In this document: one piece after another, positions 4,914 to 52,691 of the stretch
Layout: each line of letters begins with the position of its first letter
Position numbering within the stretch: position 1 is the first letter of the stretch
Assembly (NCBI GenBank): GCA_963842525.1
Contig: CAWJGT010000001.1
Span: 726,215 to 790,214 of the forward strand
DNA: 64,000 bases
Direction of reading: 5' to 3'
Source of the DNA: an uncultured Holophagales bacterium
GTDB lineage: Bacteria > Acidobacteriota > Thermoanaerobaculia > Multivoradales > UBA5704
Made by a program: the position numbers and the translations under genes
The notes under the pieces: generated by a model
The model's database searches: none
What the model saw: the letters and a program-made list of their open reading frames with translations, nothing else
What the model was told of the DNA's origin: nothing

Positions 4914-5300
4914 CTATCCGTCCGTTTTCTGGGCCGCCTCCGAGTACATCGCATCCAGCCCCACCCCGGCCAGCTCCAGCGACACCCCACCCGCCGCGGC
5001 AAGCAACAGCTTCAGCGACTCCGGCGACCGCACCAGGCAGAGCGCCACGTGCAGGGCGGGCGGAATGTCGTCGTTGAACAGCTCCAGGTGCGCCACCACC
5101 CCGCCCCAATCGCCCCGGCTTTCGATGCCATAGCCGAGGAGGTCCGGCTCGCTCCGCAGCCGGAACGCCTGATCGCGGCCCGTGGCCGGCAACACCGCCG
5201 CCAGCAGCCGCGCCAGCCACAGGGTCTTGCACACCGCCACCGGCCGGAAGCCCCGAGTATAGCTTTCACCCGGCCGGAACAGCCCGTACCCGTGCTCCAA
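4914..5300 (-). CDS. Hypothetical protein (TTG start); uncertain
   Basis: Protein-like composition ('...GYGIESRGDWGGVVAHLELFNDDIPPALHVAL...'). I recognise no family. Confidence 0.25.
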   Translation of the reverse strand: MEHGYGLFRPGESYTRGFRPVAVCKTLWLARLLAAVLPATGRDQAFRLRSEPDLLGYGIESRGDWGGVVAHLELFNDDIPPALHVALCLVRSPESLKLLLAAAGGVSLELAGVGLDAMYSEAAQKTDG

Positions 5301-5439: not shown

Positions 5440-5535
5440 GCATGGGCCTCGCACTCCTTGCCAGCGCCCACAAGGGGCGCTTCCCTCCGCCCCCCGGAGG
5501 AGATGTGTGTAAAGGTAGGGGTTGAAACCCCAGGC
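5440..5535. repeat. GC-rich multi-hairpin element (the gcgcccacaaggggcgc hairpin, a gagatgtgtgtaaaggta block, and the ggggttgaaacccc hairpin)
   Basis: The 18-nt block 'gagatgtgtgtaaaggta' and the hairpin 'gcgcccacaaggggcgc' recur in reverse complement at 49575-49631 and 49845-49862. Confidence 0.6.
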
Positions 5536-5536
5536 A

Positions 5537-8500
5537 TCACGGCTCCGGCTCCAGCACCACCTGCACCTGCACCGCGCCGCCGGGGGTGACGGTGAGCTTT
5601 TCCTGGCGCGTTCGGAAGCCATCGGCCCGGATGCTCAGCTCGTAGGTACCCGCGGCCACGCCCGGCATCTCGAAATCGCCCGCATCGCCGGTCCTCGCGG
5701 CGAGCGCCGAGGTCCATGCCGTCTGGTCGTAGACGAGGCCGTGCGCCAGGATCTCCACTCCGGAGACCGGCTCGCCGCTGGCCGCCAGGACCCGTCCGGC
5801 GATCGCACCGGTCGCGATCTCGATGTCGATCTCGCGGTCGGACGTCAGCTCCACCTGCTGGCCGTGTACGATGCCGCGGCCTTCGTGGAGGATCGTCAAC
5901 TGGTAGGTGCCGGGCGCGAGGGCCGGAATGGAGAACGCGCCTTCGTAGCCGGTCCGTGCTTCGCCCCCGAACGGCCCTCTCTGCCCTGGCCCGTAAGCCG
6001 TCAGCTTCGCACCCCGCAGCGGCTCGCCGTCCACCAGCACGCGCCCGCTCAGGGTCACCCCCTTCTCGAAGCTCAGGTCGAGATGGACCTCGCGATCTTC
6101 CGGCTCGATCCGGACCGTCCCGGCGGCCTTCCGGCCGGACGGTGTGGTCGCGGTCACGTTCCAGTCGCCGGGCGTGAGGCCCTCGACGGTGTAGCTCCCA
6201 TCCCAGCTCGCACGGCCCTGACGATCGAAGTCGAAGCGCTTGCTGGTCCCGATCTGCACCTGTGCGAGCTCCTCCGGGTCCAGGCCGGAAATCCGCCCCC
6301 GGAGGGTAGCTTCCGGCTGGCGCTTCAGCCGGACCTCGATCCCGGAGACCGGTGCTCCCGCTACCTGCATCGGGCTCGGATCCGCTTCGGCGAACCCCTG
6401 GCGCCGGACCGTCAGTCTGTAGGTCCCATCCTTGACGTAGGACAGAAGGAACGATCCGTCGGCCGCGGTGGAGGACCCGAAGCCCGAGACGTTGTCATTG
6501 CGCAGGATGACCTCGGCGCCGGAGATGGGATCTCCCGACTCCTCGTCGAGCACCTGGCCGGAGACCTCGACGCCGGCGGCCTTCTCCAGGACGATCTCGA
6601 CCTCGTTGGCCCCGGGCTGGACCGTGACCTTCACCTCGGCCGGCAGGCCGACGGCAGACATGGCGGTGACCGAAAACACTCCCGGCTCGAGGTTCAGAGA
6701 GAATCGTCCATTGCCGTCCGTGAGAGCTCTTTCGCTCTGCCAGGAGGCGCGCCGGGTGGCACCGATCTCCTCCGAGGACCGGACCGGCCGCGCCCAGATG
6801 CTGACCTTCGGCAAGGGCTCACCTGCCGAATCGCGCACGCGGCCGTCCAGCACGGAGCCCCCTTCGAGCGAGATCTCCAGGCCGTCGAGGTCCCGGTTGT
6901 CCGGAACCCGCAGGCCGAACAGGCGCCGATTCTTGTAGCCGCGGGCGGCGACCTCCAGATCGAGGCTCCCGGGCGGCAGGTTCGGGATCCGGAACTCTCC
7001 GTCCGGCCCCGTCCGGCCCCCCTCCCGCGTCGACTGGGAGATGCCGCCTCTGGCCCTGTCGTCCTGGACGAGGAGGACGCTGGCGTCCACGACCGGCTCG
7101 CCGCTCGGGCCGAGCACCCTGCCGGAGGCGCTGCGGGCGGTGGCGAGCTCGATGTCGAGGGGCACCAGGGTCGGGGCCTGCACGCCCATCGCCTCGGCAG
7201 GAGGATGGCCGGGATGCACGATCCGCAGGTCGTAGCGCCTCCCGGGCCGGAGGTCGGCGAGGAGGAAGCGGCCGTCCGCGCCGGTCCGCGCCCGTAACTG
7301 GGGCTCTGGCGGGAGAGGTGGATGCTCCATGCTCATCCTTCCACGGACCGGGAGCGCCGCGATCTCGGCCCCTGCGACCGGTGCTCCCTGGCGGTCCCGC
7401 ACGGTCCCCTCCAGGGCCGCTCCGCGAAGGAGGGTCACGACGCCGAGGTCGGTGGCGGGTGTGCTGGCGATCTCGACGCCGGCACGGCGGAGCGGAGCGA
7501 ACCCCCGGCGCTCCACCTTCAGGTCGTACAGGCCCGGGCTCAGCCGGCGGACCTCGAAGCGGCCGTCTGCACCAGACGAAGCGCGAAATTCCTCCTCGTC
7601 GAACCCCATCGGCCCCGGGACCGCCAGGCTCACCGCGGTGCCTCCCACCGGCTGCCCGGACTCGTCGACCAGCCGGCCGCGCGCCGACCGGCCGGTGTCC
7701 AGGACGATCCGGACCGGAGCCGGCGCACGGCCCGGGGATGCCGTGCGGGCCGTGGCCGAGGCACGGGCAAACCCGTCCGCGGACACGGAGAGCTGGTAGA
7801 TCGCCCGCGGCAGGAGGCCCCGCAGCCGGAAGCGGCCGTCCGGCCTGCTCCAGGCGCGCTCCCCTTCTCTGAAGTACCGGGGGCGGGCGTCCTCCAGGGT
7901 TTCGACGCGGGCCCATGGCACCGGCCTCCCCTGCGCGTCCTCGATGCGGCCCTCGACAGCGGCCTCGAGGCGCAGCGCGACCGCCACCTCGACGCCGCGG
8001 ACCGGCAGGTAGTCCGGGCTCAGGTATCCCGCGGCGAAGACGCCGAGCTGGGGAGAGAGACCCCAGGGCACCGGCAGGCGGAAGCGGCCGGACACATCTG
8101 TCCGGACCGGCGGCGCGCTAAGCCGGGGCTCGCTCCAGACGAGGGCACCGGCCACGGGCCTGCCGGAGCCGGCCTCGGTCACCCGCCCGCGGACGAGCTG
8201 CGGCGGCGCGGTCCACAGCGGCCACGGCCGCCCCGGGACCAGGGCCGGTGGAGGTGCATTCGGGATGCCGGCCCACCGGCCGTCCGGCGTCTCGATCGTC
8301 AGGAGCTGCGCTCCGTGGATCTCTTCGAGGCTCACCTTCAACCGCCCGTCGGGACCGGAGAGGCCGACCGGCTGCGATCCCCGGCGGAGGAGAGCCCGCG
8401 GCACCGGACGGCCCTCGGCGCCCTGGATCTCGACGAGGTAGAGAACGGCGGGTTGTCGGAGCTCCACCGAGGAGCCATCGACCGCTTGCTGCACCAGCCA

Positions 8501-14539: not shown

Positions 14540-14658
14540 CGTCCACCTCCTGCAAAGCTAGGTCTCCCCGATCCTATGGTCTCTGGCGCGTCGCGTCAAA
14601 GCTATAGGGAATGTGCCATGAGCGGACTGCCCTGCGCCGTATTCAAAACCCGCCATGT

Positions 14659-14690
14659 AGGGGCGGGGCTTGTCCCCGCCCGGGAGGGGA
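14659..14690 (-). terminator. GC hairpin (ggggcggggcttgtccccgcccgg) downstream of the OYE gene; weak terminator candidate
   Basis: A 9-10-bp perfect stem. The T-run on the minus strand is displaced by ~13 nt. Confidence 0.3.
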
Positions 14691-18504: not shown

Positions 18505-19627
18505 ATGTGGACATCCACCCGGTTCACGGAGCGGTTCGGCCGCCGCTATCCGATCGTGCAGGGGCCGATGGGGGGCGGCGCGTCGACGCCTGAGCTGGTG
18601 GCGGCGGTCTCGGGCGCAGGTGGGCTGGGATCGCTCGGCTGCTATCACCTGGAGCCCGCCGCGATCCTGCGCGCCGCGGCCGACATCCGGCGCCTGACCG
18701 ACGAGCCGTTTGCCCTCAACCTCTGGATCCCCCGCGAGCAGGAGGACGCCGGAAGCCCTACGACCCCTGTAGGGGCAACCCTTGTGGTTGCCCACGGTCC
18801 CGAGGCTGCCCGGGCCCTGACGCGTCTCCAGCCGTACCGGGACGAGCTCGGGCTGCCGCCCTTCACGGAGCCTCCGGCGCCCACCGTCCAGGACTTCGAG
18901 CTGCAGTTCGAACGCCGTGCTCGAAGCCCGGCCCGCTGCCTTCAGCTTCATCTTCGGTTTGCTGCCCGCGCCGATGGTGGCGGCGGCGCACCGGCGGGGG
19001 ATCGAGCTGATCGGCACTGCGACGACAGTCGACGAGGCCGAGGCCCTGGAGGCGAGCGGCGTCGACCTCGTGTGCGCCTCCGGGTTCGAGGCCGGGGGGC
19101 ACCGCGGCAGCTTCCTCCGTCCCGCGGAGCAGTCGCTCACCGGCACGCTGTCGCTCGTCCCCCAGGTCGTGAGCGCCGTGCGGGTTCCGGTGCTGGCCGC
19201 GGGCGGCATCGCCGACGGCCGCGGCGTTGCGGCGGCTCTGGTGCTCGGCGCCGAGGCGGCGCAGATCGGCACGGCCTTCCTGATGTGCCGGGAGTCCGGA
19301 GCGAGCGACCTCCATCGTGCTGCCCTCGCGGACCACGCTCGCGCGCGGCGCACCACCCTCTCCCGGGCCTACACCGGCCGGCTCGCGCGGATGCTCGCCA
19401 ACCGCTTCACGGACGAGATGGCTCAGCCCCCCACCGAGATCCTCCCCTGGCCGCACCAGAACGAGCTCACCCGGGAAGCTCGCCTTGCAGCGGCCCGCGA
19501 CGGCCGCGAGGACCTTCTGCCGTTTTACGGCGGCCAGTCGGCATCCCTGGCTTCCCCCGGTTCTGCCGCCGACCTCGTGGCAACCCTGGCCGCGGAGACC
19601 CGCGAAGCTTTCGAGCGGTCCGCGTAA
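18505..19627 (+). CDS. Nitronate monooxygenase (NMO / 2-nitropropane dioxygenase family); apparent frameshift near 18905-18915
   Basis: RBS aagggag, then 'MWTSTRFTERFGRRYPIVQGPMGGGASTPELVAAVSGAGGLGSLG'. The C-terminal part continues in another frame: 'LEARPAAFSFIFGLLP...DLVCASGFEAGGHRGSF...VPVLAAGGIADGRG'. Confidence 0.7.
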
Positions 19628-26412: not shown

Positions 26413-28266
26413 TCAGCCCTGGTCCAGGTGTCCCGTGGCCGAGTCGCCCATTTCGACCCGCCCGTCGGGAAAGTACTCCCGCCAGCGGCGGGTCACGGTG
26501 GCCGCGGTCTCCTCGTCGGCGAAGAGCTCCTTGGGGAACCACGGCTTCATCCGGGCGTCGAGGAGGATAGGTGCCTTGTAGGAAAGGTGATGGCGGACCA
26601 CCGTGGTGCCCGCGGCATGGAGGTCCGCCGCGGGCTCGAAGCGGGTGAAGGTGGCCCAGAGGAAATTGATCGGGCTCGCGGCGGCGCGGCGCGGCTCGTC
26701 GGTCAGCACCAGGAGCGGCCAGCCGGCAAAAGCAGGATGACCGGCGAAGCGCGCCGCGGCCCCGGGGTCCTCCGCATACGAGGGTCCTCCCAGGATCAGG
26801 CAGCCCGGGCAGAAGACCCGCACGTCGGTTACACCCTGGGGGACCTCGGCGGCCGTGAATTCGCGCGGCAGCTCCCGCACCGGATCGCCGAGGCCGAGCC
26901 AGACCCCCTTCGAGCCCTGATTGACCGCCGGGCCTGTGTAATCGAGCGTATCCATCGAGAGGTTCGAGAGCACATAGAGGTCCGTCTCAGGGTGGGTGCG
27001 CTCCAGGATGTGCTGGAGCGTGCGCGGAAAATCCTTCAAATCGACAGGCCGATCGGTCACCAGGAGGAACTTGGTCAGCGAGAGCTGCCCTTCGCCGAGG
27101 ATGCGGAAGGCGCTCGCCATGGCCTCCCGCCCATAGCGCTGCTTGACGACCGCCGCGGCCAATGAGTGATAGCCGGTCTCGCCGTAGGACCACAGCGACT
27201 CGACCGCCGGCATGACCAGGGGGAAGAGCGGCGACAGCAGCTCCTGGAGCAAATCGCCGATAAAAAAATCCTCCTGCCGCGGCTTGCCCACCACGGTCGC
27301 CGGATAGATCGCGTCCTTGCGCCGGGCCATCCGCCGCACGTGGAAGACCGGATAATCGTGCTGGAGCGAGTAGTAGCCATAGTGATCGCCGAACGGGCCT
27401 TCCGGCCGCCGCTCGCGCGGAGGGACCTCGCCGATCAGCGCGAATTCGGCCGAGGCGACCAGCGGGTGCGGCCCGGGGCCGGGCGCCACGAGCCGCAGCC
27501 GCTCGCCGGCGATCAGCGAGGCGAGCATCAGCTCGGGGACGTTCTCCGGGAGCGGCGCGACCGCGGCCAGGATCAGGGCCGGCGGGCCGCCGAGGAACAC
27601 GGTCGCCGGCAGGCTCTGCCCCCGCGACTCGGCCACGGCATAGTGGAAGCCGCCGCCCTTGCCGATCTGCCAGTGCATGCCGGTCGTCCGCGGGCCGTGG
27701 ACGTGGAGGCGGTACATCCCCAAGTTGTGCCGCTTGGCGTCCGGCCGGCTGTCCGGGTGCTCGGTGTAGACGAGAGGCAGGGTGACGAACGGGCCGCCGT
27801 CCTCCGGCCAGGTGGTGAGGACCGGCAGGCGATCGAGCCGGACGTCATCTGTCACGACCTCGGCGACCGGCCCGGAGCGCATCCTCCTGGAGCCGATCCG
27901 CAGGGCCTCCCGTCCGATGTCGCGCGCGCCCCAGAGCTTGCCGGGCGTCGGCGGCAGCAGCGTCTCGGCGAGATGGACCAGCCGCCGGATCAGGCGCAGC
28001 GGCCGGGTGCCGAACGCCAGCTCGGCCCGCCGCGCCGTGCCGAAGAGGTTGGTCGCCAGCGGAAAGTCGGACCCACGGACGTTGGTGAACAGCAGCGCCG
28101 GCCCGCCCGCCGCGATCACCCGGCGATGGATCTCCGACGCTTCGAGCCGTGCATCCACCGGCGCCTCGACCACGGCGAGGTCGCCGTCCCGGCGGAGCTG
28201 GTCGAGGAAGGCACGGAGGTCGGGGAACGTCGGCTCGCTCACGGCGGTGAGTGTATCCGACCTCAC
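26413..28266 (-). CDS. UbiD-family decarboxylase
   Basis: 617 aa with a UbiD-like layout: 'PALLFTNVRGSDFPLATNLFG', 'WQIGKGGGFHYAV', 'GPFGDHYGYY'. Confidence 0.7.
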   Translation of the reverse strand: MRSDTLTAVSEPTFPDLRAFLDQLRRDGDLAVVEAPVDARLEASEIHRRVIAAGGPALLFTNVRGSDFPLATNLFGTARRAELAFGTRPLRLIRRLVHLAETLLPPTPGKLWGARDIGREALRIGSRRMRSGPVAEVVTDDVRLDRLPVLTTWPEDGGPFVTLPLVYTEHPDSRPDAKRHNLGMYRLHVHGPRTTGMHWQIGKGGGFHYAVAESRGQSLPATVFLGGPPALILAAVAPLPENVPELMLASLIAGERLRLVAPGPGPHPLVASAEFALIGEVPPRERRPEGPFGDHYGYYSLQHDYPVFHVRRMARRKDAIYPATVVGKPRQEDFFIGDLLQELLSPLFPLVMPAVESLWSYGETGYHSLAAAVVKQRYGREAMASAFRILGEGQLSLTKFLLVTDRPVDLKDFPRTLQHILERTHPETDLYVLSNLSMDTLDYTGPAVNQGSKGVWLGLGDPVRELPREFTAAEVPQGVTDVRVFCPGCLILGGPSYAEDPGAAARFAGHPAFAGWPLLVLTDEPRRAAASPINFLWATFTRFEPAADLHAAGTTVVRHHLSYKAPILLDARMKPWFPKELFADEETAATVTRRWREYFPDGRVEMGDSATGHLDQG

Positions 28267-28546
28267 CCCCTGTCCCCATGCGCTTTAACTTACCCCCGGG
28301 ACGTGCCAGATCGCCCAAGGTTCACACCCGGGGCTACCCAGTTCCGCCCTCCGGGCTCTCGAATCCTGGGCACTTCGACCAACATTCTTGCGAGCCCGGA
28401 GGGCGCCATTCGGTAGCCCAGGGTGTGAACCCTGGGCGGGAGCTTCGATCGTCATCCGCACCATACGAGCCTCCTTGACCATTTCCACCTTACCACGGAG
28501 GGATGAGGCTGTATCCTTGTGCGGCCCTGAGCAAGGAGCCCGATCC

Positions 28547-31039
28547 ATGGCCGAAGCCCTGCCCGCCCCGATCCATGAGCCTGCCGAAGCTCCCGAGCCG
28601 CGCCGTCCCTGGCGCGCCCTCCGGCGGGCCGGCCTGGCCATCCTCCTCCTGCTCGGCATCCTGACGATCGCCCTGGCGGCCGGCACCCTGTGGGTCCGTT
28701 CCAGAGTGGAGGCCAGCCTCCCCCAGCTCGACGGCGAGCGGGCGATCCCCGGCCTGGCGGGGCCGGTGACCATCGACCGGGACGCCCTCGGCGTGCCCAC
28801 GATCCGGGCTGCAAACCGGCAGGATACCGCGCGGGCCCTGGGCTTTCTTCATGGCCAGGAGCGCTTCTTCCAGATGGACCTCCTGCGCCGACAGGCTGCC
28901 GGCGAGCTCGCCGAGCTGTTCGGCCCCGCGGTCGTGGACAACGACCGGCTCAACCGCGTCCACCGGTTTCGCGCGGTGGCCCGCCGGACCATTGCCGGCT
29001 CCACAGCCGCGGAGCGGGCCCTCATCCAGGCCTATGCCGATGGGGTCAACGCCGGCCTCGCAGCCCTGGGAGAAAAACCTTTCGAATACCTCGCAACGCG
29101 CACCGAGCCGGCGCCCTGGAAGCCCGAGGACACGATCCTCGCCTCGTTCGCCATGTTCATCGAGCTGCACGACGAGGACGGCAGCCGCGAATCGGACCTC
29201 GGTCTGATGAAGGACCTGCTGCCCGCACCACTGTTCCAATTCCTTGCCCCGATCGGAACGGAATGGGATGCGCCGCTCGTCGGCCAGCCGTTCGCCACGC
29301 CGCCGATCCCCGGCGCTGAAATCTTCAACCTGCGGGGCCATCCGTCGCATCTGCCGAAGGCGGCGGCGCTCGATCCGGTCGCCCCCGCTCACCCCGGGTT
29401 GACACCCGGGCGGGCCCTCGGCAGCAACAACTGGGCAGTCGCCGGCGCGCACACGGCCGACGGCCGCGCCCTGGTCGCCAACGACATGCACCTCGGCATC
29501 GCGGTGCCCAACACCTGGTACCGGGCCTCCCTCGTCCTGCCGGACGGCGCCGGCGGCACAACCCGCATCACCGGCGTGACCCTCCCCGGCACACCCGTGG
29601 TCGCGGTGGGAAGCAACGGCCACGTCGCCTGGGGATTCACCAACAGCTACGGCGACTGGACCGACCTCGTCGTCCTGGAGGTCAATCCCGGGAACTCCGA
29701 GGTCTACCGCACGCCGCAGGGACCACGTCGTTTCGAACGCGCGGTCGAGCACATCCGCGTCAAGGGCGGACCGGACGAGACGCTCGAGGTCCGCGAAACG
29801 ATCTGGGGACCGGTGATCGACAAGGACCATCGCGGCCGGCCGCGCGCTTTCGCCTGGACCGCCCACCGTGCCGAGGCGGTCAACCTCGGCCTCCTGGGCC
29901 TGGAAACAGCCCGCACGGTCGACGAGGCCCTGGCGGTCGCCCACCGCACCGGCATCCCGCCGCAGAACTTCGTGGTGGCCGACGCGACAGGACGGATTGC
30001 CTGGACGATCATCGGCAGGATGCCGCGCCGCATCGGTTTCGACGGCCGGACGCCAATGTCCTGGGCCGACGGCGCGCGCCGCTGGGACGGCTGGCTCGCG
30101 CCGGACGAGGTCCCGCAAATCGTCGATCCGCCCGCCGGCCGGATCTGGACCGCCAATGCCCGTGTGGTCGACGGCGCCATGCTGGAGAAGCTGGGCGACG
30201 GCGGCTATGACCTGGGCGCGCGGGCACGACAGATCCGCGACGACCTGTTCGCCGTCGAAAAGGCCACGCCGCGGGACCTGCTCGCCATCCAGCTCGACGA
30301 TCGCGCCCTGCTTCTGGAGCGCTGGCGGACGCTCCTGCTGGACACCGTGACCGCGCGATCCGTGGCCTCGCTCCCCGCGCGCGGCGAGCTGCGGCAGGTC
30401 GTCGAAGAGAGCTGGACCGGCCACGCCTCGACCGGCTCGGCGGGATACCGGATCGTCCGGACCTTCCGGTACCTCGTGGCGGAACGCGCTTTCGACCCGC
30501 TCATCGCCCCCTGCATGACCGCGGACGACCGGTTCGACGGCCTGTCACGCCAATTCGAAGGGCCGCTCTGGAAGCTGGCCACCGAGCGTCCCACCTGGCT
30601 GCTCGACCCACGATACGGGAGCTGGAACGACCTCCTGCTGGAAGCGGCCGATGCGACGGTGGCCGACTTCGCCGGTCAGGAGGGGACCCTGGCCGACCGG
30701 ACCTGGGGAGAGCGCAACACCACCCGCATCCGGCACCCGCTCTCCCGCGCCGTCCCCTTCCTCGGCCGCTGGCTCGACGTGCCGCCGCGTCCGCTCCCCG
30801 GCGACGAGGACATGCCGCGCGTCCAGAGCCGCGCCATGGGCGCCAGCGAGCGCCTCGTGGTCTCCCCCGGCCAGGAGGACAAGGGCTTCTTCCACATGCC
30901 GGTCGGCCAGAGCGGCCATCCGCTCTCCCCCCACTACCAGGCCGGCAACAAGGCCTGGGAAGAAGGCCGGCCGACTCCCTTCCTGCCCGGGAAGACCGAG
31001 CACACCCTGCGGCTGGTGCCCATATCGGGCCGGTCCTGA
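28547..31039 (+). CDS. Penicillin-acylase-family Ntn-hydrolase (possibly an acyl-homoserine-lactone acylase)
   Basis: N-terminal TM/signal 'AGLAILLLLGILTIALAAG'. Nucleophile motif 'GSNNWAV'. Confidence 0.75.
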   Translation: MAEALPAPIHEPAEAPEPRRPWRALRRAGLAILLLLGILTIALAAGTLWVRSRVEASLPQLDGERAIPGLAGPVTIDRDALGVPTIRAANRQDTARALGFLHGQERFFQMDLLRRQAAGELAELFGPAVVDNDRLNRVHRFRAVARRTIAGSTAAERALIQAYADGVNAGLAALGEKPFEYLATRTEPAPWKPEDTILASFAMFIELHDEDGSRESDLGLMKDLLPAPLFQFLAPIGTEWDAPLVGQPFATPPIPGAEIFNLRGHPSHLPKAAALDPVAPAHPGLTPGRALGSNNWAVAGAHTADGRALVANDMHLGIAVPNTWYRASLVLPDGAGGTTRITGVTLPGTPVVAVGSNGHVAWGFTNSYGDWTDLVVLEVNPGNSEVYRTPQGPRRFERAVEHIRVKGGPDETLEVRETIWGPVIDKDHRGRPRAFAWTAHRAEAVNLGLLGLETARTVDEALAVAHRTGIPPQNFVVADATGRIAWTIIGRMPRRIGFDGRTPMSWADGARRWDGWLAPDEVPQIVDPPAGRIWTANARVVDGAMLEKLGDGGYDLGARARQIRDDLFAVEKATPRDLLAIQLDDRALLLERWRTLLLDTVTARSVASLPARGELRQVVEESWTGHASTGSAGYRIVRTFRYLVAERAFDPLIAPCMTADDRFDGLSRQFEGPLWKLATERPTWLLDPRYGSWNDLLLEAADATVADFAGQEGTLADRTWGERNTTRIRHPLSRAVPFLGRWLDVPPRPLPGDEDMPRVQSRAMGASERLVVSPGQEDKGFFHMPVGQSGHPLSPHYQAGNKAWEEGRPTPFLPGKTEHTLRLVPISGRS

Positions 31040-31047
31040 AAAGACCC

Positions 31048-32403
31048 GTGTCAGGCTCCTCCGATCAGCACCCCGCGGTTCGCAACGAGCAGGTGCTCGC
31101 GCGCCAGCTCTCGGCGGCCCAGCAGACGGCGATGGCGCTCGGCGGCGCGATCGGGACGGGCCTGTTTCTCGCCAGCGGCTTGTCGGTCAACGTGGCCGGA
31201 CCGGCCGTCATCCTGTCCTATGTGATCGTGGCCGGCATCTCGCTGCTCCTCGGACGCGCGCTGACCGAGATGGCAGTGGCCCATCCAACGGCGGGCGCCT
31301 TCGGCGTCTACGCCGGGATGTACATCTCGCCCTTCGCCGGCTACGCGGTGCGCTCGAGCTATTGGCTGATGGAGGTGATCGCGACCGGCGCGCAGTTGGT
31401 CGCCGCATCGATCTACATGAGCTACTGGTTTCCGGGGGCGCCCGGGGCCGTCTGGGTGCTCGCGTTCTCCGTTGTGCTCATGTACGTCAACTCGCGCGCG
31501 GTCGGCCGCTTGGGCACGATCGAGTCCTGGCTCGTCCTGATCAAAGTCGTCGCGGTGGCGCTGTTTGTCGGCCTCGCCGTGCTGATCGTGCTCGGCCTGA
31601 CCGGCAAGCCCGCGATCGGCCTCAGGAACCTCACCGGACAGGGCGGCTTCCTGCCCTTCGGCCTCCAAGGGGTCTGGCTCGGCTGCTGTTTCGTCATCTA
31701 CTCGTTCATCGGCGTCGAGATCGTCGGCGTCACCTCGGGCGAAGCGACCGACCCGGCCCGCACGATTCCAGCAGCCATGCGCCGCATGGTCCTCGGCCTG
31801 TCGGCGATCTACATCGTGACCATCGCGCTGCTGGTCGCCCTGACACCGTGGAACCGGCTAGGCATCGGCGAAAGCCCCTTCGTGAGCGTTCTGACGGAGA
31901 TCGGCATTCCCGGCGCCGCGGGTCTGATGAACTTTGTCGTGCTGAGCGCCGCGCTCTCGAGCGCGAACGCGAACCTCTACCTGATCACACGGGCACTGTT
32001 CTCGCTGGCGCGCGCCGGCTTCGTCTCCCCGGCGCTCGGCGCCGTGACCGGGCATGGCGCACCGGTCAACGCCTTGCTCGTGTCGGGCATCGGCCTTGGA
32101 GGGGCCGTGCTGGTTCGCGCGCTCTGGCCCGACTCGGCATACGTGTGGTTTTTCGGCGTCGCCCTCTTTGGCGCGCTGTTCGTCTGGCTGATGATCTTCG
32201 TGACGCACATCGCCTATCGCGCGTCCGCCGCCGGAGGCAAGACGGCTCCGCTGGGCTCCTACGCGGGAGCCGCCCTGATCGCCGCGATTCTGGCGTCCAC
32301 CTGGTGGGTCCCCGGCCTGCGGTCCACCCTGGTTGCCGGCGGCCCGTGGCTCCTGCTGTTGGCGATCGGCTATCGGTTGTCGGCCGCGCGGCGCGGCCCG
32401 TGA
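31048..32403 (+). CDS. APC-family amino-acid permease
   Basis: 12 hydrophobic segments, and 'AMALGGAIGTGLFLASG' near the N-terminus. Confidence 0.7.
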   Translation: MSGSSDQHPAVRNEQVLARQLSAAQQTAMALGGAIGTGLFLASGLSVNVAGPAVILSYVIVAGISLLLGRALTEMAVAHPTAGAFGVYAGMYISPFAGYAVRSSYWLMEVIATGAQLVAASIYMSYWFPGAPGAVWVLAFSVVLMYVNSRAVGRLGTIESWLVLIKVVAVALFVGLAVLIVLGLTGKPAIGLRNLTGQGGFLPFGLQGVWLGCCFVIYSFIGVEIVGVTSGEATDPARTIPAAMRRMVLGLSAIYIVTIALLVALTPWNRLGIGESPFVSVLTEIGIPGAAGLMNFVVLSAALSSANANLYLITRALFSLARAGFVSPALGAVTGHGAPVNALLVSGIGLGGAVLVRALWPDSAYVWFFGVALFGALFVWLMIFVTHIAYRASAAGGKTAPLGSYAGAALIAAILASTWWVPGLRSTLVAGGPWLLLLAIGYRLSAARRGP

Positions 32404-48189: not shown

Positions 48190-49239
48190 ATGAGCCTCGA
48201 ATCCGAAATCTTCGAGCAACCCGCCGTCCTCGAACGCCTCCTCCGCACGCAGGCGGAGCCGGTGCGCGACATGGCTCGCACCATCCGTAGCCGGGGCGTC
48301 CACTGGGTGCTGATCGCCGCCCGCGGCAGCTCCGACAACGCGGCCCTCTATGCCAAATACCTGTGGGGCTCGCGCAATGGGCTCCCGGTCGCCCTGGCCG
48401 CCCCCTCGCTGTTCACCCTCTACCGCACGCCGCCGCAGCTCCAGGGAGCGCTGGTGGTCGGGATCTCGCAGTCGGGCCAATCCCCGGACATCGTCAGCGT
48501 CCTGGCCGAAGGGCGCCGCCAGGGGGTTCCGACCCTGGCGATCACCAACGATCCGTCCTCGCCCCTGGCCAAGGAAGCGGACATGGTCCTCGACGCCAGC
48601 TCAGGCCCCGAGCAAGCGATCGCCGCCACCAAGACCTACACCACCCAACTCCTTTCCATCGCTCTCCTGTCCGTGGCCCTAACCGGAGAAAAACGCGGCG
48701 AGGAAAGCCACACCGAGGCCATCGAGCGAGTGCCGGAGCTGGTCCAGCAGGCGTTGGCACTCGACAGCTTCATCGAGCAGGCAACGCAACAATATCGCCA
48801 CATGACGCAGTGCGTAGTCCTCGGCCGCGGCTTCAACTATGCGACGGCCTCCGAGTGGTCGCTGAAGCTCAAAGAGCTCGCCGCCGTCTTCGCCGAGCCC
48901 TACTCCTCCGCCGACCTGCAACATGGTCCGGTGGCCCTCATCACCGAGGGCTTTCCCGTCCTCGCCGTCGCGCCAGGCGGTGCGGTGTTCGAGAACCTCC
49001 TGGCGCTGCTCGCGTCCCTGGTCGAAGAACGCGGCGCCGAGCTGATCGCCATCTCCGACCAGGACAAGGCGCTGGCCCTCGCGCGCACCCCGCTACGCCT
49101 GCCCGCCGATCTACCCGAATGGCTCAGCCCTGTGGTGAGCATCGTCCCCGCCCAACTCTTCTGCTACCACCTCACCCGCGCCATGGGCCGGGATCCGGAG
49201 GCGCCGCGGGGTTTGAGCAAGGTGACGCGGACGTGGTGA
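48190..49239 (+). CDS. SIS-domain protein (sugar-phosphate isomerase/aminotransferase-like)
   Basis: 'WVLIAARGSSDNAALYAKYL', 'VGISQSGQSPDIV', a second SIS 'CVVLGRGFNYATASEWSLKLKE'. Confidence 0.65.
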   Translation: MSLESEIFEQPAVLERLLRTQAEPVRDMARTIRSRGVHWVLIAARGSSDNAALYAKYLWGSRNGLPVALAAPSLFTLYRTPPQLQGALVVGISQSGQSPDIVSVLAEGRRQGVPTLAITNDPSSPLAKEADMVLDASSGPEQAIAATKTYTTQLLSIALLSVALTGEKRGEESHTEAIERVPELVQQALALDSFIEQATQQYRHMTQCVVLGRGFNYATASEWSLKLKELAAVFAEPYSSADLQHGPVALITEGFPVLAVAPGGAVFENLLALLASLVEERGAELIAISDQDKALALARTPLRLPADLPEWLSPVVSIVPAQLFCYHLTRAMGRDPEAPRGLSKVTRTW

Positions 49240-49269
49240 GTGGGCGCGGTGGCTTACCCGGCGGCACCA

Positions 49270-49368
49270 TGACGACGCACAAGTTCCCATTTGCTGAGGT
49301 CGGGCACGCCTTTCACATGATGGAGACCAAAGAAGACAACATCATCAAGCCGCTGATCACCTATTGAG
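49270..49368 (+). pseudogene. 32-codon C-terminal remnant of a zinc-dependent (MDR) alcohol/threonine dehydrogenase
   Basis: 'THKFPFAEVGHAFHMMETKEDNIIKPLITY*' matches MDR C-termini ('thrfpLee...af.lm'). There is no upstream gene body; the low-GC islet begins immediately downstream. Confidence 0.5.
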
Positions 49369-49439: not shown

Positions 49440-49880
49440 TTGGAAATCGAGCCCCGCAGGGGCGGACGGAATTAGCCCGGTACGTCAGTGCCGGGTTGGG
49501 AGGCACAAATCCACCATCCAGCCCCGGTAGGGGCGGCAGGAAATCCGGTGGGTTGAAATGCGTTCGGTTCCCGGGATTGAAATCCATACCTTTACACACA
49601 TCTCAAAGCGCCCCTTGTGGGCGCGGGCGCGTAGACCCGGGTTTCAACCCGGGGTCGCGGAGGCCCGGCCCGTTTCGAGCCCCTTTCAGGGGCGTCGGCG
49701 AGGATGGCGCACAGGCCCGCCGTCCTCGGGCACCGCACACCGACGGCATTGCGCTTCCGTCTGCGCCATCGCCCCTGAAAGGGGCGCAGGGAGGATTGGT
49801 GGATCTCGCACCCCGGGTTGAAACCCGGGGCTATGTGCCAGCGCCCACAAGGGGCGCTTCCCCCACCCTCCCGGACAGGA
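49440..49880. repeat. Composite GC-rich multi-hairpin element with UUCG/GNRA-type tetraloops, arranged as a ~95-bp imperfect inverted repeat around a ~65-bp core
   Basis: Left arm 49607-49697: gcgcccc-ttgtg-ggcgc; gacccggg-tttcaa-cccggg; gcccct-ttc-aggggc. It is mirrored at 49764-49862 as cgcccct-gaa-aggggcg; ccccggg-ttgaaa-cccgggg; gcgccc-acaa-ggggcgc. Confidence 0.75.
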
Positions 49881-50212
49881 TATGTATAACGGTGTTCTCG
49901 TGTGACTGAAATGCCAAGCGCGCGTAGGGTCAGATGCGCTCTGCTCGACCTCCTTCGCTCGTCGAGCATGCCGTAGTTGCGGCTTTCCGCGGCACAGGGC
50001 CGACCAGAATGCTTCTCCAAATGCCTCGGCGGTCTTGACGCAGGTTACGAAGAGGTGTAGGGTGCGCTAAGTCGAAGAGGATAAGCATCTTGCATGCTCG
50101 ACAATCTGGGACCGGCCGTAGACTCAACCCGCAGGTGGTGTCGTATACGCCTGTGGGCGGGGTGCCGGCGAATATGTGAGGCAGAGGTTAGACGCAAAAG
50201 AAGCATGCTCGT

Positions 50213-50881
50213 ATGAAACAGACAATCGACAGTCGCTTTGCTGACCTAGTGGATCAAGGCCATCGCCTCTTAAGCGAGCTTCCTCTTGACAATAATAACC
50301 TCGGATATTGGGTGCTCAGGGAGTCTATCCCCAAATACCAGGCATGGATAGCCTCGACTGTTAACCTGCTAAGCAACATCGCGCTACCAGCAAGTTACTA
50401 TGTCGAGGAAAGCAGACGATTGGTTTCCGACAAGGACTTGGCGAGGGGAATACCGACGCACGTAGTGCAGAAGCTTTGCGCTCTCCTTGTATCTGCCTAC
50501 GAAGAATGGAATGCGGGGCTCCTTAAGAGAATTGAGTATGTGCTGATCGCGGCAACATTTGACGACTTCCTCGAACACGCTGCCCCTTATCATAAAGGAA
50601 ATAAAAAAACAGAGGCCGCCGTTCTGGCGAGCGCTGTGCTTGAAGATACCATAAAGAAGATCGCCGAAAAGCAAGGCATAGAAACGAGTGGCAAGAGCTT
50701 GGAGCAACTAGTGGATGCCCTCGTTAGCGCCTCGGTGTTTTCCTTAGTTCAAGGCAAGAGGGTAAAGGTCTATTCCGGAGTACGTAATCACGCGCTTCAC
50801 GCTGAATGGGACCGTTTTGAAATCAGAGACGTCGGAGAGTTGATCAAGGGCACACGGACCCTTATCGAGGATTTTGTTTGA
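50213..50881 (+). CDS. HEPN-type (Rx4H) Abi-like hypothetical protein in a low-GC islet
   Basis: ~48 % GC by eye. C-terminal 'VRNHALHAEWDRFE' fits the HEPN R-x4-H motif. No signal peptide. Confidence 0.5.
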   Translation: MKQTIDSRFADLVDQGHRLLSELPLDNNNLGYWVLRESIPKYQAWIASTVNLLSNIALPASYYVEESRRLVSDKDLARGIPTHVVQKLCALLVSAYEEWNAGLLKRIEYVLIAATFDDFLEHAAPYHKGNKKTEAAVLASAVLEDTIKKIAEKQGIETSGKSLEQLVDALVSASVFSLVQGKRVKVYSGVRNHALHAEWDRFEIRDVGELIKGTRTLIEDFV

Positions 50882-50983
50882 TAGAAGCTGCGCATCGAAC
50901 CCGCGCTTGCACCGGTCAGACGGCCATCGCCGCCTTCCGGTGAAGCGACTAGCGCACGCTGGTCGGCTTGATATCACGAAGGA

Positions 50984-51220
50984 ATGCCAAGCTTCACACA
51001 CCTGCAGGGCCAATATCTCGCTTTCATCGACGCGTACACGAAAGTGAGCGGTCGTCCACCGGCGGAGGCTGACTTCCTGCGCTACTTCAAAGTCTCGCCG
51101 CCCTCGGTCCACCAGATGATCCTTACGCTTGATCGCCTCGGACTCATTACACGTTTGCCGGGCCAAGCGCGATCCATTCGTCTGAATCTTCCGTCCAACG
51201 AGATTCCGCGTCTCGAGTAG
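50984..51220 (+). CDS. Small winged-helix-like protein (possible regulator or iteron-binding protein)
   Basis: 'SPPSVHQMILTLDRLGLITRLPGQARSIRL' resembles a winged-HTH. Low GC. Confidence 0.4.
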   Translation: MPSFTHLQGQYLAFIDAYTKVSGRPPAEADFLRYFKVSPPSVHQMILTLDRLGLITRLPGQARSIRLNLPSNEIPRLE

Positions 51221-51221
51221 G

Positions 51222-51460
51222 AGTGCAAGCCCAAAGGGCGTGGCGAAGGTGCCCCGAAGGGGCTCTGGCGTAAAGCCTGGCGCTTCAGCGCCAGGTTGGC
51301 GTTCCCCAAACTCTCCGGAGCCCCGAAGGGGCGCAGGCATTGCGTCAAATTTGCCGTCGCCCCTTCGGGGCTTGGAGGCGTGGAGGACCCTGACCTGGCG
51401 CTGAAGCGCCAGGCTTTATGCCTGCGCCCCTTCGGGGCTCCTCGTCGCCGTCGTCGTTGG
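51222..51460. repeat. Nested inverted repeats of small hairpins (gccccGAAggggc / gccccTTCGgggc; cctggcgcTTCAgcgccagg)
   Basis: Left arm 51240-51300 mirrors right arm 51385-51445. An inner inverted repeat lies at 51322-51372. Confidence 0.7.
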
Positions 51461-51520: not shown

Positions 51521-51850
51521 TACGACGCCCAGCGTAAGCTTATCCAAGCCAGATAAGCTTACACTGGCTCAGATAAGGGTATCCGCGCCAGATAGTGTTA
51601 TCTGCGCCAGATAAGCCCACGCTGGCCTGGATAAGCTTATCTGCGCCGGATAAGCTTATCCACGCTGGATAACGTTATCTACGGCAGATAGTGTTATCTG
51701 GGGCAGATAAGCTTATCTGCGCTGGATAAGCTTACACTGGCGTGGATACCGTTATCCGCGCTGGATAGTGTTATCTGCGGCAGATACGCTTATCCGTCTT
51801 GGATACGCTTATCTGCGCCGGATACGCTTACACTGAGCTGGATAACGTTC
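51521..51850. repeat. 17 direct tandem copies of a ~20-bp palindromic unit (consensus cyGGATAAGCTTATCYGCG) that contains DnaA-box-like 9-mers (TTATCCACG, TTATCTGCG, TTATCCGCG)
   Basis: Units read off directly: gataagcttacactggctca / gataagggtatccgcgcca / gatagtgttatctgcgcca / ... / gataacgttctctacgtca. No spacers separate them. Confidence 0.85.
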
Positions 51851-51902
51851 TCTACGTCAGATCATTTAAACAGCGGTGGATGTCTGTGGAGAAGGGCGCG
51901 GA

Positions 51903-51945: not shown

Positions 51946-52318
51946 TTACTGCGGATCGATCGCGAGGACCGCGGGAGTGGCGGGGTCGGGCGGCGTCTTG
52001 GCCTTGCGGCCGCGGAACGGCTGGAGGTGGAATTCCGCGAGCTTCTCCGACCGCAGGCCGTAGTGCTGCTGGAGGATCTTGCCTGCCGCGGTCGCCAGCC
52101 TTTCGCCTTCGGTGAGCAGCGTACGGATGCGCTTGCTCGCCTCCTGCTTGCTGGCGACGAGGGCGGCGTGCTCCCGCACGACTCCTTGCGCTTCGGCCAG
52201 GATCGCCTCGATCCGGACGCGAAGGCCTTCCAGGTGGGTGAGCTCGGCAGCGTTGGCGAGCAGCGCGGCGATGAATCGCGCCAGTGCGCCCAGCTTCCCT
52301 GCATAGGTACGTTCAGAC
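51946..52318 (-). CDS. Hypothetical coiled-coil protein
   Basis: 'MSERTYAGKLGALARFIAALLANAAELTHLEGLRVRIEAILAEAQ...'. No family recognised. Confidence 0.4.
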
Positions 52319-52691
52319 ATTTTGCTTCTCCTTTTTGAGCCCGAGGGGGCTCGAACACCCGGCGCCGGAAGCGGCGCCTGATGTGTGCATAGAGTCCACG
52401 ACTTTCCCGGCGGTGTCAAGAGCCTCGTTGACTTTCCCGGTCGACTGTGCGAGCCTCCTGCATATTGAAGGACGCGCGATGATGCCGATCGACCGAGCAG
52501 GACGATCGGGAACGCAAGGCTCTTTGACAATAGAGAAGGACGGCGGCCCCCGGGTCCAAGGGCGCCGCCGTCCGCCCGGACGGGTCCGCTGTGTTCCGGC
52601 GGACCCGGTCCCTGTTTCTCCGGCACCTACCCCTTGCAAGACTATGGGAAGGTGCGGTAACGTCTTCGCAGGCGAAAGAGGAGAGCCTGCG

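Follow-up and report, generated by a model that had tools for sequence, protein, structure and literature searches.

Acido-Lenti-1 hairpin units in a Holophagales bacterium as probable REP-type DNA repeats partnered with an IS200-clade Y1 transposase

The DNA analyzed here is a stretch of 64,000 nucleotides (positions 726,215 to 790,214 of contig CAWJGT010000001.1) from an uncultured Holophagales bacterium, which we refer to as the window and which has a G+C content of ~68%. Between 49.4 and 52.3 kb it contains a gene-poor mosaic in which GC-rich hairpins are arranged as mirror-image arms. These hairpins belong to a repeat unit of ~60 nt that occurs in at least seven full copies in the window (Table 1). 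Each unit consists, in order, of a hairpin that we call H1 (a stem of 8-9 bp starting with CC, closed by a tetraloop whose first base is T), a CT(A)N tag, a linker of ~10 nt, and a second hairpin with a 5-bp stem, H2. All full units are intergenic, and the sole match outside intergenic DNA that was returned by our covariance model R1 (described below) covers H1 only, at 29393, and is of doubtful significance. When the opposite strand is read, the tag becomes NTAG at the 5' foot of the hairpin, represented in the window by TTAG, GTAG(A), ATAG, AAAG, and GTAG. A tetranucleotide ending in TAG and followed by a hairpin is a hallmark of repetitive extragenic palindromic (REP) sequences, and we therefore tested the hypothesis that the units are REP-type repeats associated with a transposase.

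The unit corresponds to Acido-Lenti-1 (RF01687). This motif was introduced in 2010 as a probable RNA, its function unknown, that occurs in Acidobacteria and Lentisphaerae and in some cases lies close to group II introns (PMC2864571); Rfam types it as "Gene; sRNA" (small RNA). A comparison with Rfam had been named as a check by an earlier model-generated interpretation of the same letters, made without database searches and called the sequence-only reading here. Of the window copies, three score above the RF01687 gathering threshold of 37 bits (51394-51439 on the plus strand, 49450-49495 and 28393-28436 on the minus strand), and the doublets are completed by opposite-strand partners that score below it. 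That reading also reasoned that copies confined to the window, or the lack of a conserved structure, would speak against a repeat family; we find instead that many phyla carry copies and that both helices covary. A degenerate H1 22-mer that includes the first tag bases (CCCVRGGTTSAMACCCBGGGCT) has five matches in the window, where 0.00 are expected, and occurs in at least 119 genome blocks (contigs representing one genome per species). The hosts span at least 10 phyla and include Acidobacteriota (notably Thermoanaerobaculia), Planctomycetota, Verrucomicrobiota, Bacteroidota, Chloroflexota, Gemmatimonadota, Lentisphaeria, Zixibacteria, Omnitrophota, and others. In most copies H2 starts 8-12 nt past the tag, and another small hairpin is often found 18-30 nt upstream. 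Exact matches to the 22-mer are also present in IMG/VR contigs classed as viral (L001-L004), two of which hold two copies each with a typical H2 after them; these copies are either prophage-borne or bacterial DNA misbinned as viral. ARAGORN reports no tRNA in the element region, and the remaining Rfam matches lie far under their thresholds, as chance microRNA-like matches to long hairpins.

The units in the window are mostly organized as inverted doublets, which we label A, B, and D. The repeat finder delimits arms of 50 nt with 92% complementarity in doublet A (49606-49655 and 49810-49859, with inner arms at 49679-49707 and 49757-49785) and arms of 62 nt with 85% complementarity in doublet B (51247-51308 and 51381-51442, with inner arms at 51317-51340 and 51418-51441). 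As single-stranded DNA, 49600-49865 folds into one long hairpin of -111.8 kcal/mol (z = -12.6) and 51241-51448 into another of -98.2 kcal/mol (z = -13.3), and none of 200 shuffles was as stable as either fold. Both analyses agree with the GC-rich hairpins and mirror-image arms that the sequence-only reading had placed here. Its description of each locus as three small hairpins holds as to their presence, but each arm is composed of H2, H1, and an extra H2-type hairpin. Its list of loci was right for 49440-49880 and 51222-51460; the third, 5440-5535, is merely a degenerate relative in which R1 detects separate pieces only (6.6 and 4.9 bits), and the doublet at 28309-28441 and the fragment at 59841-59860 were missed. 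The 18-nt block GAGATGTGTGTAAAGGTA and the GCGCCCACAAGGGGCGC hairpin, which it had reported as common to two loci, are indeed shared between 5455-5540 (plus strand) and 49565-49632 (minus strand), with a diverged version 3' of 49857. In an alignment with 5455-5540 (A5), the block TACCTTTACACACATCTC at 49572-49605 is this 18-nt block in reverse complement, and a Holophagales locus elsewhere (L111) carries a similar extension 3' of H2.

In doublets A and B, a minus-strand unit is followed by a plus-strand unit, and the 98-146 nt between their H1 hairpins do not encode a gene. Doublet D has its tags facing inward, in the order H1-CTAC-H2 ... H2'-GTAG-H1'. Across genomes, adjacent units form 28 inverted pairs and 5 direct pairs. 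Two inverted REPs that are separated by a short spacer and form one long hairpin constitute a REP doublet forming a hairpin (REPIN), and doublets A, B, and D all have this organization, with the fold z-scores referring to A and B. The H1-only copy at 59841-59860 is located inside a longer hairpin with a 16-bp stem.

All-versus-all clustering of open reading frames (ORFs) from 123 blocks, performed without prior assumptions, revealed a family of ~150 amino acids (aa) beside the motif at 10 loci. The family belongs to Pfam Y1_Tnp (E values of 1e-20 to 1e-24) and passes the NCBIfam IS200/IS605 model NF033573 (67 bits versus a cut-off of 55). Its closest solved structures are the TnpA proteins of ISDra2 and IS608; the PDB matches do not include E. 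coli TnpA-REP. Invariant residues comprise HUH, the catalytic Y, DHVH, W, SVS, and Y...Q..HH, and the resulting signature, DHVH / WQ / YIxNQxxHH, matches at the sequence level that of TnpAY1 subclass 1.2, reported as DH[IV]H / WQ / Y---Q--HH in low-copy proteins of ~148 aa (PMC6006769, Quentin et al. 2018). Metagenome-assembled genomes (MAGs) of Thermoanaerobaculia, the class to which the proteins of the window point, encode this Y1 protein. On their contigs L208 and L209 the gene is flanked by units and dispersed doublets are also present, with 10 units in 20 kb on L208, and in MAG SMAG_U5742 the gene lies on L209 and units lie on a separate contig, L006. A subclass-1.2 Y1 gene of Dyadobacter sp. 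MSC1_007 (L083 5393-5857, minus strand) adjoins three H1 copies in direct tandem with 99-nt spacing (4989-5208), an arrangement unlike the inverted doublets elsewhere.

We approached the association in reverse from the protein side, using 80 metagenomic loci fetched by protein similarity alone. A strict search for a perfect stem of at least 7 bp, a loop of 4-5 nt, and a CTA tag was positive in 66 of 152 gene flanks versus 4 of 1394 control windows. The flanks typically show an NTAG-hairpin upstream and a hairpin-CTAN downstream, with stems that vary by locus and always compensate. The covariance model R1 was built from 58 gene-flanking units of other organisms, with no window sequence. For 71 of 76 genes it locates a unit in the 200 nt upstream (62 on the minus strand), and for 69 of 76 genes a unit downstream (65 on the plus strand). 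Units are present on both sides of the Y1 gene in 62 of 72 cases, so that these relatives show the inverted flanking copies that characterize a REPtron, and unit density is 4.15/kb within 300 nt of the gene compared with 0.05/kb beyond 600 nt. R1 also recovers the window copies, with E values down to 1.7e-11. The sequence-only reading had suggested REP-like elements or miniature inverted-repeat transposable elements (MITEs), and this suggestion fits repeated, intergenic, mostly inverted doublets whose relatives bracket an IS200-like transposase gene.

The Y1 gene and its two flanking units could alternatively be an ordinary multicopy insertion sequence (IS) of the IS200/IS605 family, moving by peel-and-paste, with the gene-less doublets as MITE-like derivatives formed by internal deletion. 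Such an origin would account for the NCBIfam and structural matches and for doublets A and B, which resemble the gene-flanking pair in layout but lack the gene. We consider it unlikely because the ends of these ISs carry hairpins on the same strand, whereas the nearest units here are inverted as in a REPtron. Also at odds with it, the published survey of subclass 1.2 reports 1.7 copies per genome with 36% identity between copies within a genome (PMC6006769), and instead of two defined ends the genes often have a cluster of several alternating units around them.

An alignment of 150 units shows that 97% of the stem cells are paired and contains 397 double changes, compared with 80 in shuffles. 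In H2, which was never a selection criterion, 89.5% of cells are paired and all five pairs have changed on both sides. G·U and U·G combinations account for 8 of 1937 cells, versus 56 for other mismatches, and are no commoner than those. The tag conforms to NTAG in 126 of the 150 units (84%), as GTAG in 53, ATAG in 35, and TTAG in 34, and CT stands beside H1 in 140 (93%). E. coli TnpA-REP requires GTAG and cleaves at CT beside the REP (PMC8266576), and by analogy the tag is likely a guide or cleavage site here.

Strong covariation in both helices would also be expected of small structured RNA genes, as Rfam has Acido-Lenti-1, with hairpins that act in the transcript and a Y1 link that is regulatory or coincidental. 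The scores above the RF01687 gathering threshold point the same way, and covariation led those who described the motif to rate it as probably RNA (PMC2864571 supplement). However, a DNA hairpin explains covariation equally well, and because mirror doublets occur in both orientations, no single strand is consistently the "gene." Many copies per locus, a roughly 80-fold clustering around the gene of a single-strand-DNA transposase, and the fixed inverted geometry likewise sit poorly with RNA genes. Nor are promoter or terminator features evident, though no search aimed at them was made. The scarcity of G·U pairs, the two-strand mirror organization, and the link to a single-strand-DNA enzyme together favor a hairpin that probably functions at the level of DNA rather than RNA. 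We therefore judge structured-RNA genes, the other option raised from the letters alone, to be quite unlikely.

Doublet D is located between a divergent UbiD gene (26413-28242, minus strand) and a penicillin amidase gene (start at 28548, plus strand), where comparison with relatives reveals a polymorphism. In one relative (L204; UbiD identity, 96%), the UbiD-amidase intergenic region measures 47 nt and is without doublet D, while the window has 258 extra nt at that site (28252-28509), with the 7-nt direct repeat TGTATCC at the borders. In three further relatives (L205-L207), the vicinity of UbiD is devoid of units. The extra segment and a palindromic element at 61501-61668 have one terminus, GACCTCACCCCCTGTCCCC, in common. 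This second palindromic family has the termini GACCTCACCCCCTG(T/G)CCCC and at 28252-28509 encloses doublet D. The 7-nt direct repeat and the GACCTCAC... terminus are found at locus D only, and reading of the sequence at doublets A and B showed no comparable termini or direct repeat. It is very improbable that the doublets are passengers or parts of miniature elements with terminal inverted repeats and target-site duplications moved by a DDE transposase, or plain GC-rich terminator or mRNA-stabilizer palindromes without a dedicated enzyme: the only filled-versus-empty site does carry the direct repeat and the shared terminus, but the flanks of that segment are unique and only its REP units recur elsewhere, doublets A and B are without such termini, H2 as a rule has no U-tract, and the conservation of H1 and tag across phyla and their tight inverted association with Y1 would be left unexplained.

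Our preferred interpretation, to which we assign a probability of roughly 0.78, is that the elements are REP-type DNA repeats, mostly REPIN-like inverted doublets, and that they act as non-autonomous partners of an IS200-clade Y1/HUH transposase (subclass 1.2) encoded elsewhere in the genome. If E. coli TnpA-REP and IS608 TnpA are taken as models, the hairpin would extrude on single-stranded DNA, such as the lagging-strand template, and a Y1 dimer would bind H1 and read the NTAG/CT tag as a guide or cleavage site. Cutting and rejoining of single strands would then allow units and doublets to spread or to be deleted or rearranged. Secondary effects on read-through transcripts, through stabilization or termination, are possible. 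We lean, with less assurance, toward the broader proposal that Acido-Lenti-1 is the cognate REP of TnpAY1 subclass 1.2, in a REP-enzyme partnership that would have arisen outside the clade of REP-associated tyrosine transposases (RAYTs) and that spans at least 10 phyla, its recognition hairpin, CCCNGGGTTGAAACCCNGGG-CTA, being almost invariant. A more daring version would have the low-GC two-gene segment at 49.9-51.2 kb captured or moved by the REP/Y1 system.

Several observations weigh against interpreting the elements as REP-type partners of Y1. No Y1 gene was found in the 64-kb window by tblastn and by profile hidden Markov model searches of six-frame ORFs, and trans-mobilization in this organism is therefore proposed on the basis of relatives. 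The Y1 family fails the NCBIfam RAYT model, REP_Tyr_transpos NF047646 (23 and 19 bits versus a cut-off of 80), the canonical GT[AG]G tag is present in 57 of the 150 units (~38%), and the sole published survey of subclass 1.2 found neither REPs nor terminal hairpins around the gene (PMC6006769). What the polymorphism at the UbiD site documents is that a composite segment was recently gained or lost, not that a bare doublet transposed, because the termini and the direct repeat belong to a different repeat family. The segment involved, of 251 nt with the 7-nt direct repeat, includes the doublet along with other sequence. The 80 loci of the reverse test are the nearest relatives of proteins that were first found beside the motif, and the R1-fitted alignment leans toward Watson-Crick pairs. 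R1 was also partly trained on loci that it scored; we therefore applied the Rfam model to 20 loci not used for R1, and this independent model of 2010 identified the same flanking units in the same geometry in 15 of them.

The surroundings of doublets A and B include a C-terminal remnant of a zinc-type alcohol dehydrogenase frame (49200-49367, ending ...KPLITY*), which follows a SIS-domain gene. Between the two doublets lies a low-GC segment (49900-51240, 52% G+C) with two ORFs, neither of which is on record; 50213-50881 is unmatched in Pfam, NCBIfam, and PADLOC, and 50984-51220 matches only a LexA-type winged-helix DNA-binding domain. ORF 51946-52320 (minus strand) is likewise without a match, and the region also holds an Acidobacteria-type PadR gene and a MacB/FtsX permease. 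The two doublets bracket this low-GC segment, which has the look of a mosaic acquired horizontally. Integron attC sites, as palindromes that bracket a foreign-looking cassette, were considered and rejected by reasoning: both orientations are represented among the units, which elsewhere border Y1 genes, and there is no integrase among the neighbors examined.

Next to the LexA-type ORF, an array of ~17 units with a 19-bp period extends from 51533 to 51860, and each of its units contains the 12-bp palindrome GATAnnnnTATC. A representative sequence, GATAAGCTTATC, has 10 matches where 0.5 are expected. The sequence-only reading had called this a DnaA-box array and had considered the clustering of the elements around it notable. 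We rejected a DnaA-box or origin assignment, as the units are GATAnnnnTATC palindromes and the array holds a single near-DnaA box, TTATCCACG at ~51656; its appearance is closer to that of an operator, iteron, or centromere-type array. The elements at 28.3 kb and 59.8 kb are far from any such array, and the link between array and elements looks incidental. The simplest explanation for the clustering of REP units at 49.4-52.3 kb is that noncoding DNA is abundant there. Cumulative GC skew has its minimum (-0.98) at ~31000-32000 and rises afterward, a weak signal that could mark a replication-related strand switch.

Two further hairpins in the window, at 14657-14681 (GTAGGGGCGGGGCTTGTCCCCGCCC) and 18769-18793 (GTAGGGGCAACCCTTGTGGTTGCCC), resemble classical REPs with a GTAG foot, a CTTGT loop, and compensating stems. 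Their class is not that of the Acido-Lenti-1 unit, and the copy at 18769-18793 may be within a coding region. We also considered, and rejected, an identity of the units with GTAG REP families published for Verrucomicrobia and Planctomycetes (PMC3733652), since the peptide footprints reported for Opitutus terrae (e.g., VGPALAAG) fit another hairpin class, like that of GTAGGGGCGGGGCTTGTCCCCGCCC at 14657. On the minus strand at 59779-59800, a perfect extended -10 element, TGTATAAT, is situated ~16 nt upstream of the ATG of ORF 59221-59778, between the start of this ORF and the long H1-containing hairpin at 59833-59868.

TABLE 1 Positions of the repeat units and related features in the 64-kb window (Rfam scores refer to RF01687)
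Feature	Position	Strand	Details
Degenerate relative, not a full unit	5464-5531	+	H2 5464-5480; extension block 5481-5516; short H1-like hairpin GGGGTTGAAACCCC 5518-5531; alignment A5
Doublet D, left unit	28309-28366	+	H1 with mismatches; R1 15.1 bits, E 0.019; Rfam 21.4 bits; exact match to 22-mer pattern
Doublet D, right unit	28384-28441	-	R1 36.3 bits; Rfam 41.0 bits at 28393-28436, above gathering score
Solo full unit	49441-49500	-	R1 50.5 bits, E 1.7e-11; Rfam 46.4 bits at 49450-49495, above gathering score of 37
Solo unit, H1	49476-49495	-	Stem CCCGGTAC/GTGCCGGG, one G·T pair
Solo unit, tag and H2	49472-49475 (tag); ~49452-49466 (H2)		Tag TTAG on + strand
Extra linker and H2-type fragment	49522-49544	-	agccccggtaggggc; weak: R1 positions 28-50, 10.3 bits, E 0.34; direct-repeat family D2
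Doublet A, lineage-specific left-arm extension	49572-49605	-	Short hairpin GGGATTGAAATCC and block TACCTTTACACACATCTC
Doublet A, left unit	49600-49659	-	H2 49608-49624; tag GTAGA; H1 49636-49653; R1 21.7 bits, E 4e-4; inverted repeat I2
Doublet A, inner part	49679-49785	.	H2-type hairpins gccccTTTCAggggc 49679-49693 and gccccTGAAAggggc 49771-49785; spacer ~77 nt; inverted repeat I15
Doublet A, right unit	49806-49865	+	H1 49811-49830 CCCCGGGTtgaaACCCGGGG; tag CTAT; H2 49841-49857; R1 36.2 bits, E 8e-8; Rfam 24.3 bits, below gathering score; exact match to cross-phylum 22-mer pattern
Doublet A, extension 3' of right H2	49858-49892	+	TTCCCCCACCCTCCCGGACAGGATATGTATAACGG, homologous to 5481-5516; alignment A5
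Doublet B, left unit	51241-51300	-	H2 ~51250-51263; H1 51276-51295 CCTGGCGCttcaGCGCCAGG; R1 42.3 bits, E 2e-9; Rfam 33.2 bits, below gathering score
Doublet B, inner H2-type hairpins	51317-51372	.	gccccGAAggggc and gccccTTCGgggc; R1 matches by linker and H2 part only, at 51320-51333 (-) and 51349-51371 (+); inverted repeat I21
Doublet B, right unit	51389-51448	+	H1 51394-51413; tag CTTT; H2 ~51426-51439; R1 48.2 bits, E 7e-11; Rfam 49.2 bits, above gathering score
H1-only copy	59841-59860 within 59833-59868	+	CCCAGGGTtcacACCCTGGG; without tag and without H2; R1 19.4 bits (positions 6-25); hairpin scan

For this window alone the implications are modest, since its elements are ordinary members of a repeat family and their place beside the GATA-palindrome array has no demonstrated meaning. 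If the REP-type interpretation is correct, an Rfam sRNA entry becomes a DNA repeat, which affects automated annotation in Acidobacteriota, Planctomycetota, Verrucomicrobiota, Bacteroidota, and other phyla. An orphan Y1/HUH subclass, whose proteins form thousands of clusters annotated variously as "IS200/IS605 transposase" or "RayT," would also gain a concrete candidate DNA substrate. REP-type domestication would then have occurred in the IS200 clade as well, which bears on the origin of REPs and REPINs from insertion sequences. The short, near-invariant hairpin and its tag are suited to biochemical work on hairpin and guide recognition by HUH enzymes. Within the literature that we searched, and only there, we found no paper that ties Acido-Lenti-1 or subclass 1.2 to REP-type repeats.

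Among known systems, Acido-Lenti-1 itself is the same two-hairpin unit, with an 8-bp H1, a CUGACG loop, a GGCUA tag, a linker, and a 5-bp H2, and its seed sequences come from Acidobacteria (Koribacter) and Lentisphaera. In contrast to the Rfam entry, an sRNA gene of two phyla, the element described here is best read as a DNA repeat, occurs in at least 10 phyla, forms inverted doublets, and brackets a Y1 transposase gene. The enzyme shares its signature, length, and reported low copy number with TnpAY1 subclass 1.2; unlike the survey of that subclass, our data show inverted hairpin units on both sides of the gene in the great majority of the relatives examined, many of them Acidobacteriota, Planctomycetota, and Verrucomicrobiota. 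With the IS200/IS605 elements IS608 and ISDra2, the system has in common a homologous fold, the HUH and Y residues, GC-rich subterminal hairpins near the gene, and, judging by analogy, probably the single-strand-DNA chemistry. It differs from them in that the flanking hairpin units are inverted rather than on the same strand, the gene is reported to be low copy, and hundreds of gene-less units appear to exist.

The closest parallel is provided by the REPs, bacterial interspersed mosaic elements (BIMEs), and REPINs of E. coli, Pseudomonas, and Stenotrophomonas with their RAYTs (PMC3116915, PMC8266576, PMC3733652), which likewise have a short extragenic hairpin with a tetranucleotide at its foot, GTAG there and NTAG here. 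As in REPtrons, CT is invariant beside the hairpin, inverted doublets form long hairpins, and inverted copies flank a Y1 gene reported to be low copy. The elements nevertheless depart from classical REPtrons in one defining respect: their enzyme is of the IS200 clade (class 1, subclass 1.2) and not one of the RAYTs (class 2 TnpAY1). The repeat differs too: its tag may start with G, A, or T, a second hairpin, H2, is an obligatory part of the bipartite unit, and whereas classical REPs are lineage specific, H1 is almost identical across phyla.

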